Shown: piece by piece, positions 1 to 4,461 of the stretch
Numbering within the stretch: the stretch's first letter is position 1
How the letters are laid out: every line of letters starts with the position of its first letter
DNA from: a virus
Lineage: Duplodnaviria; Heunggongvirae; Uroviricota; Caudoviricetes
Strand: one strand, 5' to 3'
Virus record (IMG/VR): IMGVR_UViG_648276652_000010
Coordinates: 1-4,714 of that record
Length of the DNA stretch: 4,714 nucleotides
Notes under the pieces: model-generated
Database searches by the model: none
Seen by the model: the letters and a program-made list of their open reading frames with translations, nothing else
What the model was told of the DNA's origin: nothing
Made by a program: the position numbers and the translations under genes

Positions 1-232
<232 letters not shown>

Positions 233-263
233 CTGTTATTTATGCCAAAAATAAAGGCCACTA

Positions 264-464
264 TCAGGCAGCTTTGTTGTTCTGTTTACCAAGTTCTCTG
301 GCAATCATTGCCGTCGTTCGTATTGCCCATTTATCGACATATTTCCCATCTTCCATTACAGGAAACATTTCTTCAGGCTTAACCATGCATTCCGATTGCA
401 GCTTGCATCCATTGCATCGCTTGAATTGTCCACACCATTGATTTTTATCAATAGTCGTAGTCAT
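264..464 (-). CDS. ral: Ral restriction-alleviation protein (66 aa)
   Basis: ATG at 464 (minus). Product MTTTIDKNQWCGQFKRCNGCKLQSEC... matches my recollection of lambda Ral in sequence and length. It sits in the expected place downstream of N in the PL operon. Confidence 0.75.
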   Translation of the reverse strand: MTTTIDKNQWCGQFKRCNGCKLQSECMVKPEEMFPVMEDGKYVDKWAIRTTAMIARELGKQNNKAA

Positions 465-534
465 ACGGATAGTCCTGGTATTGTTCCATCACATCCTGCG
501 GATGCTCTTCGAACTCTTCAAATTCTTCTTCCAT
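448..534 (-). CDS. orf28-like acidic 28-aa peptide (MEEEFEEFEEHPQDVMEQYQDYPYDYDY)
   Basis: Not in the ORF track (too short). ATG at 534 is preceded by GAGGTG (revcomp of 539..544) at 4-nt spacing. Its stop TGA (448..450) overlaps the ral start by 17 bp, the same arrangement I recall for lambda orf28/ral. Confidence 0.5.
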   Translation of the reverse strand: MEEEFEEFEEHPQDVMEQYQDYPYDYDY

Positions 535-542
535 ACATCACC

Positions 543-707
543 TCAAATAAGTGGTTTGCTGCGAAAATAAATACGCTCCCACCAAGTTCCGTATCTATCT
601 ATCCAGTTACACCAATCATCGACACTCCATTTTGTTGTGTCGCATTTTGGCAATTGACATGAATATCTACCTTCTTTGTAAAGTCGGCGTTTGACTTTCT
701 TGAGCAT
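543..707 (-). CDS. Hypothetical small protein (54 aa; MLKKVKRRLYKEGRYSCQLPKCDTTKWSVDDWCNWIDRYGTWWERIYFRSKPLI)
   Basis: ATG at 705..707 (minus) is preceded by GAGGT at 5-nt spacing. The longer 74-aa track ORF begins with GTG at 767 and has no RBS. The stop overlaps the orf28 RBS. Trp/Cys-rich with no recognisable family. It occupies the interval where lambda has sieB. Confidence 0.35.
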   Translation of the reverse strand: MLKKVKRRLYKEGRYSCQLPKCDTTKWSVDDWCNWIDRYGTWWERIYFRSKPLI

Positions 708-770
708 GACTACCTCAATCGTAATAAGCTGGAATTGATTTTCCGCGTTGTTTCTGGCGACCAACACAAG

Positions 771-1154
771 TCACCTTGCTGTCAGTTGTTTTGATTTCCT
801 GTAGCCTGCCGCGTAAAGAGCTACATTTGGAAGACATACACCAGTTTCTGGTTGCCTATGCCCAAACTCATTCGCGTACACAATGGCCGCTCTCTCCAGA
901 TTGCGTCTGTATTCTTTCTGTTGCCAGATCACGTCCTGTGCCATGAACTTAATTGGCTTAGCGTCTTCTATGCGCTCAGGCGTTTCGTGAGTACCTTTAG
1001 CCTGAATCTGCGCTCTGCTTAGAGTAGGGCGGTGTAATACTTCTGAACTTATTGCTTCTTCGCGGGCCAGTACGCCGTTAGCTAATGCCTTTGCCTTTAA
1101 ACGCTCACGACGACGAGAACGTGAATTGCCTTTGAACTGAGTTCTGCGTGTCAT
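771..1154 (-). CDS. N: N-type transcription antiterminator, P22 gp24-like (127 aa)
   Basis: ATG at 1154 with AGGAGG 6 nt upstream. N-terminal arginine-rich motif NSRSRRRERLKAKALANG. The C-terminus ...LPNVALYAAGYRKSKQLTAR resembles the recalled P22 N terminus (...VALYAAGHRKSKQITAR). Lies directly downstream of PL and nutL. Confidence 0.7.
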   Translation of the reverse strand: MTRRTQFKGNSRSRRRERLKAKALANGVLAREEAISSEVLHRPTLSRAQIQAKGTHETPERIEDAKPIKFMAQDVIWQQKEYRRNLERAAIVYANEFGHRQPETGVCLPNVALYAAGYRKSKQLTAR

Positions 1155-1319
1155 ATAGACCTCCTGATGAACTTTGGTGGTGTGGTAGGTGGGAGACCCA
1201 TTTCGACCTGTTTCGGCCTACTTCAATTCGGCAATAGTCCCGCAGGCCTCGCCGCTTTACGTGCGACATATTCCCGTCCATGAACCCTTCACCACACCCC
1301 AAAGTTCACTTTGGTTATT

Positions 1320-1334
1320 GCGCTTTGTCAGCGC
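1320..1334 (-). promoter_or_regulatory. nutL boxB hairpin (GCGCUGACAAAGCGC, GACAA pentaloop, P22 type)
   Basis: Minus-strand sequence GCGCTGACAAAGCGC forms a 5-bp stem with loop GACAA, in the PL leader about 165 nt upstream of the N start. No canonical boxA (CGCTCTTTA) is visible upstream. Confidence 0.5.
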
Positions 1335-1402
1335 CGTAGATTCATATTCGAATCGTTGTATATTCACCGCCCTGGTGAGTAGTGCGTCCTGCTGATGTGT
1401 TT

Positions 1403-1465
1403 AGTATCACCGCCAGTGGTATTTATGTCAACACCGCCAGAGATAATTTATCACCGCAGATGGTT
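1403..1465 (-). promoter_or_regulatory. PL promoter with operators OL1 (1405..1421), OL2 (1429..1445) and OL3 (1449..1465)
   Basis: The three 17-bp sites tatcaccgccagtggta, caacaccgccagagata and tatcaccgcagatggtt match lambda OL1/OL2/OL3 as I recall them. Minus-strand -35 TTGACA is at 1426..1431 and -10 GATACT at 1403..1408, with a 17-bp spacer. Confidence 0.85.
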
Positions 1466-1610
1466 ATCTGTATGTTTTTATATAGATTTATTTTTTGCAG
1501 GGGTGTGTGGCTTGGGAGGTGATCGAGAGATCTGAATTGCGATGTTTAGTGAGTTGTATCTATTAATTTTCAAATAAATACAATTGGTTATGTGTTTTGG
1601 GGCGAACGTG

Positions 1611-1650
1611 AGGCAAAGAAAACCCGGCGCGGTGGCCGGGTTTATTTATT
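1611..1650. terminator. Intrinsic terminator hairpin, potentially bidirectional; t_imm-like end of the cI operon
   Basis: Stem cccggc (1623..1628) pairs with gccggg (1635..1640) around a 6-nt loop. The minus strand follows it with TTTTCTTTG and the plus strand with TTTATTTATT. It sits immediately 3' of the stop of the last cassette gene and before OL. Confidence 0.5.
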
Positions 1651-2296
1651 GCTTAGGAGCTTGTTGTGATGACGATTGGTTAGTTGGAGCGCTCGTTAAT
1701 GGTTGCTGTGTCGGTACCTGTATTATAATTGGAGCCGGGCTGGTTACTGATGGTGACTTGTCATTGCCGGAGATAATCCAACTTGAGGCTAACATCACGC
1801 CAGACAGAATCACAGTAACTAAAGTCAAGCCAACGGCCATCGCCCACTGAGTCGTTGTAAGTCCCGTTTTCAAACCGCCGATTTCACCTTTAATTTCAGC
1901 AATACCTCTCTCAATAGAAGAAAATTGCTGAGTATAATAGGTTTTAAAGTCAGCTGATTCGCGACGCATTTCCGCAGCAATAGACTCTACCTCTGATTTG
2001 TTTTGTGAAAGCTTTGCGTCAAGTTCTTCTCTGGACATTCCGCTCACGCTTACCTCCAGGGTATCACTCTTCATCGCTACATCTTCCTTACTTGGGCGCA
2101 AACCCGTTTCGTCCATGGCGTATGAAACTCTATTTGATACCTTAGCATCAATACCAATACTTTGGTACTGAGATGGATCCCCATAAGGAGAAACGGTTGT
2201 CGCTGCTAGGGTTGCACTAACTATAATACTTGGAAGAACTGATGATGTTGTTCCTGAGGTAGGTTGAACTGAAGAAACTGGCTTCAGTCTTTCCAT
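1646..2296 (-). CDS. Hypothetical membrane-anchored protein (216 aa): Ser/Thr-rich N-terminal region, central predicted coiled coil, one C-terminal TM helix, Ser/Pro/Gln-rich tail
   Basis: ATG at 2296 overlaps the stop of the upstream gene (ATGGAAAGACTGA), suggesting translational coupling. An alternative internal start at 2072..2074 has a strong AAGGAAG RBS and would give 142 aa. Hydrophobic segment AMAVGLTLVTVILSGVMLASSWII. Stop TAA at 1646..1648 abuts the terminator hairpin. Confidence 0.6.
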   Translation of the reverse strand: MERLKPVSSVQPTSGTTSSVLPSIIVSATLAATTVSPYGDPSQYQSIGIDAKVSNRVSYAMDETGLRPSKEDVAMKSDTLEVSVSGMSREELDAKLSQNKSEVESIAAEMRRESADFKTYYTQQFSSIERGIAEIKGEIGGLKTGLTTTQWAMAVGLTLVTVILSGVMLASSWIISGNDKSPSVTSPAPIIIQVPTQQPLTSAPTNQSSSQQAPKQ

Positions 2297-2550
2297 AGCC
2301 CATTATCCCTGAGAGCTACCTGTAATGATTTTACTAATGCAACAGCTTGATCCGGGCTCATTGAGACTGACATGTTAGGGGTCAACTCAACTTTTACTTG
2401 GAAGCTATTCTTTCCTTGCTCATCAGACTGCATGTGATGCTCAAATTCATGGCGGTAAAAAGTAATGATTGTTTCAGCACGATCAGGCGTAATAAGAACT
2501 GATGTGGCGGTCATGTGCTGAGGTATGATTTTAATAGTGTTATCTGACAT
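2284..2550 (-). CDS. Hypothetical soluble protein (88 aa; MSDNTIKIIPQHMTATSVLITPDRAETIITFYRHEFEHHMQ...)
   Basis: ATG at 2548..2550 (minus) is preceded by AAAGGA at about 6-nt spacing. The track ORF extends to an ATG at 2691 (135 aa), but that start has no Shine-Dalgarno. No recognisable family. The 3' end overlaps the next gene. Confidence 0.5.
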   Translation of the reverse strand: MSDNTIKIIPQHMTATSVLITPDRAETIITFYRHEFEHHMQSDEQGKNSFQVKVELTPNMSVSMSPDQAVALVKSLQVALRDNGLWKD

Positions 2551-2742
2551 AAGTATCCTTTTTGTTTCCTTAGTATTTTTTTGCATTGACATCAGAAATA
2601 GCGAATCCACAAGAGTATGAGTAAAGCTAATCAGTTTAGTGATACGGTGACTATTAAAGTGGTAAACCACATCAAAGCTCGCAGAGTGCATACCAGGCTG
2701 TCACACATGACAAAGTAACGAGGATGCCTGATCTCATAGCGC

Positions 2743-2898
2743 TCAAAGAGACATGCCGATAATGGCATTAACCACGCATGACGCCATAAACACGCCGCCA
2801 ACGATGAAGCTGGCTTGGTTCTTCCTGGTAGCGCCAAGAGTCAACAGAACCACTGAAAGGGCAAAAAAAGGTATCGCGATTATGCTGAACGTGTTCAT
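2743..2898 (-). CDS. Small membrane protein (51 aa; MNTFSIIAIPFFALSVVLLTLGATRKNQASFIVGGVFMASCVVNAIIGMSL), two predicted TM helices
   Basis: Not in the ORF track. ATG at 2896..2898 (minus) with GAGG at 5-nt spacing. Two hydrophobic stretches are separated by a basic loop, RKNQ. First gene after cI on the same strand, 77 bp downstream of the cI stop. Confidence 0.45.
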   Translation of the reverse strand: MNTFSIIAIPFFALSVVLLTLGATRKNQASFIVGGVFMASCVVNAIIGMSL

Positions 2899-2975
2899 GT
2901 TGACCTCAACTTATTTCGATTCTCCATCACCCTTAATCCGCCGCCCCATGTGTTTGTTGTGATTCGTTGCTGGCC

Positions 2976-3692
<717 letters not shown>

Positions 3693-3695
3693 TTA

Positions 3696-3765
3696 AATCT
3701 ATCACCGCAAGGGATAAATATCTAACACCGTGCGTGTTGACTATTTTACCTCTAGCGGTGATAAT
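3696..3765. promoter_or_regulatory. OR3 (3700..3716), OR2 (3723..3739), OR1 (3747..3763) with divergent promoters PRM and PR
   Basis: tatcaccgcaagggata and taacaccgtgcgtgttg match lambda OR3 and OR2. OR1 reads tacctctAgcggtgata, against lambda tacctctGgcggtgata as I recall it. PR -35 ttgact is at 3737..3742 and -10 gataat at 3760..3765. PRM hexamers lie on the minus strand at 3719..3724 and 3696..3701. Confidence 0.9.
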
Positions 3766-3780
3766 GGTTGCATGTACTAA

Positions 3781-3990
<210 letters not shown>

Positions 3991-3997
3991 GTAACAC

Positions 3998-4043
3998 CGC
4001 TATTTTCACAATGGACATTCGTCCTACGTCGCTGACAAAGCGA
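3998..4043 (+). promoter_or_regulatory. nutR: boxA-like cgctattttcaca (3999..4011) and boxB hairpin ucgcuGACAAagcga (4029..4043)
   Basis: The boxB has a 5-bp stem and GACAA loop, the same loop as the nutL boxB. It lies between cro and cII on the PR transcript. The pentamer CTACG precedes both boxB copies. Confidence 0.45.
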
Positions 4044-4128
4044 GTCCCAATATATCTGACCAACTAAGGCCATATGCGTTTCCACGCATACCTTTCAACT
4101 AGCTATTCACTATTGGAAATCATAAGAA

Positions 4129-4425
4129 ATGGAACAAACAAGTTACAGCAAACTATCCCAGCGTGACGTTGATCGCGCAGAAACAGATTTACTCATCAAC
4201 CTGTCAACGCTTACCCAGCGCGGTCTGGCAAAGATGATTGGCTGTCATGAATCGAAGATAAGCAGAACGGACTGGAGATTTATTGCTTCAGTCTTGTGTG
4301 CTTTCGGAATGGCATCAGACATCAGTCCGATTAGTAGAGCTTTTAAGTATGCGCTTGATGGAATCACAAAGAAAAAATCCCCGGTGGCCGCCGGGGACTC
4401 TAAGCAAATTGATATGCAATTCTGA
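4129..4425 (+). CDS. cII: CII-like transcriptional activator (98 aa), divergent from lambda CII except at the C-terminus
   Basis: In the lambda cII position. The HTH-like segment GLAKMIGCHESKISRTDW and the C-terminal ...KKKSPVAAGDSKQIDMQF parallel lambda ...NKKRPAATERSEQIQMEF. The 32-nt spacing to the O start matches lambda. Confidence 0.7.
   Translation: MEQTSYSKLSQRDVDRAETDLLINLSTLTQRGLAKMIGCHESKISRTDWRFIASVLCAFGMASDISPISRAFKYALDGITKKKSPVAAGDSKQIDMQF
4372..4397 (-). terminator. t_oop-like intrinsic terminator embedded in the 3' end of cII
   Basis: Minus strand reads GTCCCCGGCGGCCACCGGGGATTTTTTC: a 7-bp GC stem (4378..4384 with 4391..4397), 6-nt loop and a run of six T. Same position relative to the cII stop as lambda t_oop. 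Confidence 0.6.
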
Positions 4426-4448
4426 GGGAATTACTGGATCAATCAACA
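4372..4448 (-). ncRNA. oop: oop-like antisense RNA (about 77 nt), 5' end inferred by analogy to lambda
   Basis: The 3' end is defined by the terminator above. The 5' end is placed by lambda spacing only. The expected pO -35 would fall inside the IS629-like insertion. Confidence 0.35.
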
Positions 4449-4461
4449 GGAGTCATTATGA
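4446..4461 (+). pseudogene. O: Replication initiator O: RBS and start codon only, interrupted by IS insertion
   Basis: caggagtcattATGA matches the lambda O translation start. From 4459 the sequence is the IS left end rather than O codons. Confidence 0.5.

Follow-up and report, generated by a model that had tools for sequence, protein, structure and literature searches.

The analysed window, a stretch of 4,714 nucleotides taken here at its full length, almost certainly represents the early control region of a lambdoid prophage resembling HK97, with IS elements cutting into it at either end; in this region, an HK97/H-19B-type N/nut module, with an N protein of the P22 family, surrounds the immunity region of lambda. 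Early regions of this HK97 type are ordinary and had been sequenced before, and phage H-19B has already served for studies of the N/nut pair.

Organization of the window

The features of the window are collected in Table 1. IS interruptions of the prophage lie at ~229/230 and ~4460, and the right-hand IS3-family element begins where HK97 has gp53 and the replication genes after cII. To the left of N (230-750), the window departs from HK97, with the ral segment and the DUF5484 ORF in place of HK97 gp45, which makes the prophage a further mosaic variant. The arrangement over 230-4461 is common to many E. coli genomes. The rex slot (1643-2979), occupied by rexA/rexB in lambda and by hicAB in HK106/mEp234, contains different genes in the window, for which no above-threshold match was obtained in Pfam or PADLOC. 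The position of these genes suggests lysogen-expressed cargo, possibly with an exclusion or defence function.

Table 1. Features of the window, with positions counted from its first nucleotide
Feature	Position	Strand	Description
IstB-like C-terminus and IS end	1 to ~229		IS21-family IstB helper, final 53 codons
ral segment, lambda-like	230-559		98.5% to lambda
DUF5484 small ORF	543-707	minus	
N	771-1154	minus	127-aa ORF; phrog_271
N leader, untranslated	1155-1319	minus	from nutL boxB to N start codon; partly unlike H-19B
nutL boxB	1320-1334	minus	DNA GCGCTGACAAAGCGC, RNA GCGCUGACAAAGCGC; 5-bp stem, GACAA loop
nutL spacer hairpin	1339-1354	minus	GAUUC-GAAUAU-GAAUC; same in H-19B and 933W; stem kept in Salmonella relatives
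Early pL-transcript hairpin	1364-1378	minus	UCACC-AGGGC-GGUGA; ~+19 to +33
Degenerate nutL putative boxA	1378-1386	minus	DNA CGCACTACT, RNA CGCACUACU; 5/9 to CGCUCUUUA
Left junction	1381-1396	minus	patch ATCAGCAGGACGC(ACT) at pL +1; lambda-like to H-19B/933W-like DNA
pL/OL region	1403-1465		
pL promoter	1403-1431	minus	TTGACA, 17 nt, GATACT; same as lambda pL
OL1	1405-1421		17/17 vs lambda
OL2	1429-1445		17/17 vs lambda
OL3	1449-1465		17/17 vs lambda
Bidirectional terminator hairpin	1620-1643		terminator scan
Two function-unassigned genes and small hydrophobic ORF	1646-2898	minus	
HK97 gp48	1646-2296	minus	216 aa; phrog_5820
HK97 gp49	2284-2550	minus	88 aa; phrog_26809
Unannotated hydrophobic ORF	2743-2898	minus	51 aa
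cI	2976-3689	minus	Pfam HTH_3 and Peptidase_S24
OR/pR	3700-3765		
OR3	3700-3716		17/17 vs lambda
OR2	3723-3739		17/17 vs lambda
pR	3737-3765		intact
OR1	3747-3763		16/17 vs lambda
cro	3790-3990	plus	Pfam Cro
Right junction	~3975-4004	plus	last cro codons to nutR boxA; lambda-like to H-19B/933W-like DNA
Intergenic region bearing nutR	between cro and cII		
nutR boxA-like	3998-4006	plus	DNA CGCTATTTT, RNA CGCUAUUUU; 7/9
nutR spacer hairpin	4013-4024	plus	GGAC-AUUC-GUCC; same in H-19B and 933W
nutR boxB	4029-4043	plus	DNA TCGCTGACAAAGCGA, RNA UCGCUGACAAAGCGA; 5-bp stem, GACAA loop; annotated in EF120461
cII	4129-4425	plus	H-19B/HK97 type, unlike lambda cII; Pfam Phage_CII
IS3-family (IS1203-like) element	~4460 to window end (4714)		

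The lambda-type immunity cassette

An earlier sequence-only reading of the window described the repressor, Cro and operators as lambda-type, and the alignments bear this out. The window cI is identical to lambda cI at 235 of 237 residues and Cro to lambda Cro at 65 of 66, and five of the six operators are identical to their lambda counterparts. The deviation of OR1 is a single G-to-A change at window position 3754. This change, together with T3A and K71N in cI and K39N in Cro, is also present in HK97 and HK106, and the window cI is the same as the cI of both phages. By the sequences of cI, Cro and the six 17-bp operators, the window belongs to the imm-lambda group, and a lysogen would be expected to be immune to lambda superinfection. 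Lambda's immunity is reported by Juhala et al. 2000 and by Degnan et al. 2007 to be common to HK97 and the HK106/mEp234 group.

N is a member of the P22 gp24 family

The N protein is 100% identical to HK97 N, and it shares 125 of 127 residues with 933W N and 124 of 127 with H-19B N, the sole differences from the latter being at positions 60, 80 and 100. It matches Pfam PF25694 (N_peptide) with 57.8 bits, above the gathering cutoff of 27.9, and the same family is matched by P22 gp24 with 152 bits and by H-19B N with 57.9 bits. Lambda N matches PF11438 (N36) only, a family for which the Pfam scan of the window proteins gave no match to the window N. The comparison of the two N proteins yielded one weak alignment (E=0.012), and significant protein similarity between them was not found. 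A sequence search of N against PDB chains returned nothing.

The sequence-only reading had assigned a P22 gp24-like C-terminus to N, and BLASTP recovered this likeness over the C-terminal 33 residues, the sole aligned part, with 22 identities and an E-value of 5e-11. The C-terminal tail of N (LPNVALYAAGYRKSKQLTAR) follows the pattern LPxVALYAAG(H/Y)RKSKQ(I/L)TAR, which is common to N and gp24 and is present in every relative examined. Moreover, the P22 resemblance, for which only the C-terminus had been cited, covers the RNA-binding head too. Local alignment paired the N-terminal segment FKGNSRSRRRERLKAKAL with FAGNAKTRRHERRRKLAI of P22, at a score equalled by one of 2000 shuffles. The arginine-rich motif of N, RSRRRER (residues 12-18), aligns to the P22 RNA-binding peptide NAKTRRHERRRKLAIERDT, the boxB-binding sequence given in PMC11480772. 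In this alignment, the P22 contact Lys (peptide position 3) corresponds to Arg12 of the window N, and the sole Ile of the P22 peptide, taken as the contact Ile, corresponds to Leu24. Between these two ends, BLASTP and local alignment found no significant alignment of the N centre with gp24.

Both nut sites carry a GACAA-loop boxB

In agreement with what had been read from the letters of the sequence, a boxB with a GACAA loop is present at both nut sites, compared to the loops GAAGA and GAAAA of lambda. The nutL boxB is identical at 15 of 15 positions to the annotated nutL boxB of P22 and is the same in H-19B and 933W; it occupies +63 to +77 on the pL transcript, with a predicted fold of -8.5 kcal/mol. 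The nutR boxB is located downstream of cro and folds as predicted.

Hairpins this small might in principle be chance hairpins or terminators instead of nut sites, and the Rfam scan of the whole window (E<=1), which gave one spurious lncRNA match, detected no boxB or nut. However, we give this explanation practically no credence. A search for GACAA hairpins with a stem of at least 4 bp, on both strands of the whole window, retrieved these two only, each on the transcribed strand 3' of pL or pR, compared to 0.039 expected per window in the shuffle test (P(>=2)=0.0005). In addition, no U-tract follows the hairpins, the terminator scan made no call on them, and they are the same as the sites of the published H-19B N assays.

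The boxA elements of these two nut sites differ from the canonical layout of lambda and P22, in which a boxA CGCUCUU(U)A lies a few nucleotides 5' of boxB. The sequence-only reading had seen no canonical boxA at nutL, and indeed, when up to two mismatches to CGCUCUU(U)A were allowed, no boxA was found 5' of the nutL boxB; the best candidate is the degenerate 5/9 element, which EF120461 annotates as the putative nutL boxA. The boxA-to-boxB spacing is 43 nt at nutL and 22 nt at nutR, with a hairpin within each spacer. Two hairpins have been described in H-19B nutR (PMC3526286). The nearest boxA-like octamer on the pL transcript, CGCACGUA with two mismatches (1258-1265, minus strand), lies ~55 nt 3' of boxB in the N leader, on the wrong side for a nut site and within a portion of the leader where H-19B has a different sequence.

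Farther upstream, the hairpin at 1364-1378 has an invariant stem and a variable loop across H-19B, 933W, SPN9CC, epsilon34 and SF6. Its lambda counterpart at the same place, CACC-AUGAA-GGUG, is weaker. It may belong to the "alternative NUT RNA structures" described for H-19B.

Comparison of the N/nut module with those of lambda and P22

In lambda, as in the window, the pL operon begins with N, and nut sites follow 3' of pL and of cro. Lambda also shares the general mechanism, in which an arginine-rich peptide binds the boxB hairpin. Nevertheless, lambda differs from the window in the family of its N (PF11438), in its boxB loops and in having a canonical boxA at both sites. The outcome that the sequence-only reading had named as evidence against itself, an alignment of N and the nut sites with lambda, did not arise: N falls into PF25694, the loops are GACAA and the DNA is H-19B/933W-like.

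Unlike lambda N, gp24 of P22 belongs with the window N to PF25694, and the two share the motif pattern FxGNxxxRRxER and the C-terminal tail. The two phages also have the nutL boxB GCGCUGACAAAGCGC in common, which is the RNA of the P22 N-peptide/boxB NMR complex (PDB 1A4T, as cited in PMC11480772), as well as the GACAA loop at both nut sites. Despite these likenesses, gp24 has 100 residues, compared to 127 for the window N. The P22 nutR boxB, CCGCCGACAACGCGG, has the loop of the window nutR boxB (UCGCUGACAAAGCGA) but not its stem (CCGCC/GCGG in P22 vs UCGCU/AGCGA in the window). Moreover, the nut sites of P22 have a canonical boxA, GCTCTTTAA at nutL and GCTCTTTAC at nutR, followed by a short unstructured spacer, whereas those of the window have a long spacer with a hairpin.

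The description of N and boxB as "P22-type" thus stands at the level of the family, with PF25694, the same nutL boxB and the retained motif and tail, and fails as a statement of derivation from P22, the DNA likeness to which does not go beyond 72% across a 68-bp stretch at the 3' end of N. The 15/15 match of the nutL boxB, the similar C-terminal tail and the arginine-rich motif could also be accounted for by a recent direct gain of N/nut from a P22-like Salmonella phage, which would make the prophage a true lambda x P22 hybrid, similar to the laboratory imm-hybrid phages. We regard such an origin as very improbable, given the short stretch of P22-like DNA, the different lengths of the two proteins, the lack of a significant gp24 alignment for the N centre, and the canonical boxA without a spacer hairpin at P22 nutL. 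In addition, relatives of N at 97.6-100% identity are found in HK97, 933W and H-19B. Direct descent from P22 was rejected on the DNA alignments. As far as these alignments go, the module is of the H-19B/933W type at the DNA level and is not P22-derived, its relation to P22 being a distant one.

Junctions between lambda-like and H-19B/933W-like DNA

Pairwise blastn showed that the lambda-like DNA comprises 1364-1642 (89.7%) and 2980-4004 (97.7%), and that the 933W-like DNA comprises 751-1395 (98.5%) and 3983-4350 (96.2%), the H-19B match running to 4461. The patch at the left junction is common to lambda, P22, H-19B, HK97 and 933W. Across lambda, P22, H-19B, 933W and the window, 12 of the first 13 bases of the pL transcript are invariant, the 933W transcript starting with G. 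On the right, the two matches overlap, as the lambda match stops at 4004 and the 933W/H-19B match begins at 3983. Module exchange had been proposed at the OL and cro-cII boundaries; the alignment check confirmed it, with breakpoints at 1381-1396 and ~3975-4004, so that the proposed boundaries were right to a few tens of bases. We propose that the mosaic would have arisen by recombination within short sequences shared among lambdoid phages, where the pL transcript begins and at the cro end/boxA, and recombination in such shared patches would be the obvious route.

The same mosaic in HK97 and other relatives

Window 751-4461 is 98.8% identical to HK97 26014-29723 (NC_002167 / AF069529), with 43 base differences, 33 of which are in cII. 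The two have N, cI, Cro and gp48 proteins of identical sequence, and the nutL/OL junction is the same. However, HK97 has gp45 to the left of N, does not have the IS ends of the window, and possesses a cII that is less like those of H-19B and 933W than the window cII is. The window cII matches H-19B cII at 94 of 98 residues and HK97 cII at 87 of 98, with 31 matches to lambda cII. The concentration of 33 of the 43 HK97 differences in cII and the nutR-distal spacer (4000-4461), where the protein is nearer to that of H-19B, points to a further small exchange within the right-hand module.

Over the stretch from the pL start to the nutL boxB inclusive, the window does not differ from H-19B and differs from 933W by a single base; at nutR, the sequence from boxA to boxB is identical to both. 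With N at 97% identity or above, near-identical nut sites and the same spacer hairpins, the window falls into the H-19B/933W/HK97 N-nut module. H-19B and 933W have the same type of N/nut, but possess their own repressors and operators, not those of lambda. The records EF120461 and EF120460 (immunity regions of HK106 and mEp234) annotate boxA and boxB of nutL and nutR, pL, pR and the operators at homologous positions, and the same nutL and nutR appear among the annotations of the 933W record. At a threshold of at least 80% coverage, the nutL/OL junction was found in 10 phage records (HK97, HK106, mEp234 and PhiR5_2), as well as in 110 out of 5426 complete E. coli genomes. Judged by these comparisons, the mosaic is already known as that of the HK97 genome itself, with its nut sites annotated in GenBank.

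Putative mechanism of antitermination

A lambda-specificity cassette (OL/pL, cI, OR/pR and cro) is flanked on both sides by the HK97/933W/H-19B N/nut module, and the transcripts from pL and pR both bear GACAA-loop boxB hairpins. In the proposed mechanism, the arginine-rich N-terminus of N would bind these hairpins, its centre would recruit NusA to the spacer, and its C-terminal tail, common with gp24, would contact RNA polymerase, which would then pass the terminators tL and tR1.

The corresponding steps have been studied in H-19B, the N protein of which antiterminates at H-19B nutR/tR1 both in vivo and in vitro, the latter in a purified system containing NusA and NusG (PMC3526286). Its activity is abolished by R3H, S11F, R15C/P and R18P, and also by Ala replacement of the arginines in 12-RSRRRER-18, and the N/NusA footprints cover boxB and the spacer, not boxA (PMC3526286). 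Residues 101-127 constitute the RNA-polymerase-binding domain (PMC3526286; PMC4499122), and L108F in the C-terminal domain is a suppressor of RNA polymerase mutants, as cited in PMC4499122. All of these residues are identical in the window N, which is 97.6% identical to H-19B N, and the nutR boxA, spacer and boxB of the window are identical in sequence to the published H-19B assay site. By analogy with this literature on H-19B, the N/nut pair of the window would antiterminate. The published picture of the H-19B system is in keeping with the hairpin-bearing spacers and the poor boxA of the window. As the nutL boxA fails the consensus, a lambda-like requirement for NusB/NusE cannot be assumed. 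Going by the title of Neely and Friedman 2000, host factors are reportedly needed to a lesser extent.

Variation of boxB and the arginine-rich motif

The Salmonella phages SPN9CC, epsilon34 and SF6 keep the nutL scaffold, with the start of the transcript, the hairpin UCACC...GGUGA and the hairpin of the spacer. At the position of boxB, however, SPN9CC has GCUC-CGUCAAC-GAGC, with a 7-nt CGUCAAC loop, and epsilon34 and SF6 have CGGCU-GAAA-AGCCG, with a GAAA tetraloop. The arginine-rich motif of N varies in parallel with boxB (GTSRARRRERLKAK and GSAAGRRRERRAAL), whereas N is otherwise similar. Such parallel changes of motif and hairpin are the pattern that would be expected of a peptide/hairpin recognition pair. 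This series agrees with a previous study, in which the N of epsilon34 was predicted to have its own boxB specificity (PMC2629481). Window 1316-1400, set beside SPN9CC, epsilon34 and SF6, presents a natural specificity-switch series with three boxB types.

Active module or remnant, and implications

With IS elements interrupting the prophage, this copy of N may never be expressed. N and nut could therefore be correctly identified and yet constitute a dead remnant with no role in the host, an explanation that we take seriously and rate at somewhat below an even chance. The IstB fragment and IS end at 1-229 fit such a remnant, as does the IS3-family element near 4460, which severs the replication genes that HK97 carries after cII. 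On the other hand, the ORFs for N, cI, cro and cII are all intact, as are the promoters pL and pR and the operators, and N, cI and Cro are 100% identical to the HK97 proteins. Moreover, the remainder of a prophage is not necessarily lost when an IS simply inserts, and the length of the window does not suffice to decide this. We infer that the N copy of this IS-flanked prophage is still expressed.

The identical nutL boxB, together with the conservative changes of contact residues (Lys to Arg12 and Ile to Leu24), raises the possibility of cross-activation at nutL. That HK97/H-19B-type N and P22 gp24 activate each other's nutL is a tentative suggestion, which we consider rather doubtful; no test of it was met in the literature accessible to this study.

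As a discovery, the region carries little weight, since it is a case of textbook lambdoid mosaicism that was sequenced with HK97 and re-annotated with its nut sites in wild imm-lambda phages. Its value lies in annotation, as a lambda cI/cro in a prophage does not imply a lambda N/nut. The exchange points are placed to within ~15-30 bp, and the combination is common, as seen from its frequency in complete E. coli genomes. If nutL cross-activation did occur, it would mean antitermination cross-talk between HK97/Stx-type prophages of E. coli and P22-like phages of Salmonella, and the window, SPN9CC and epsilon34 would make up a natural specificity-switch set, in which the arginine-rich motif is varied against boxB on one nutL scaffold.
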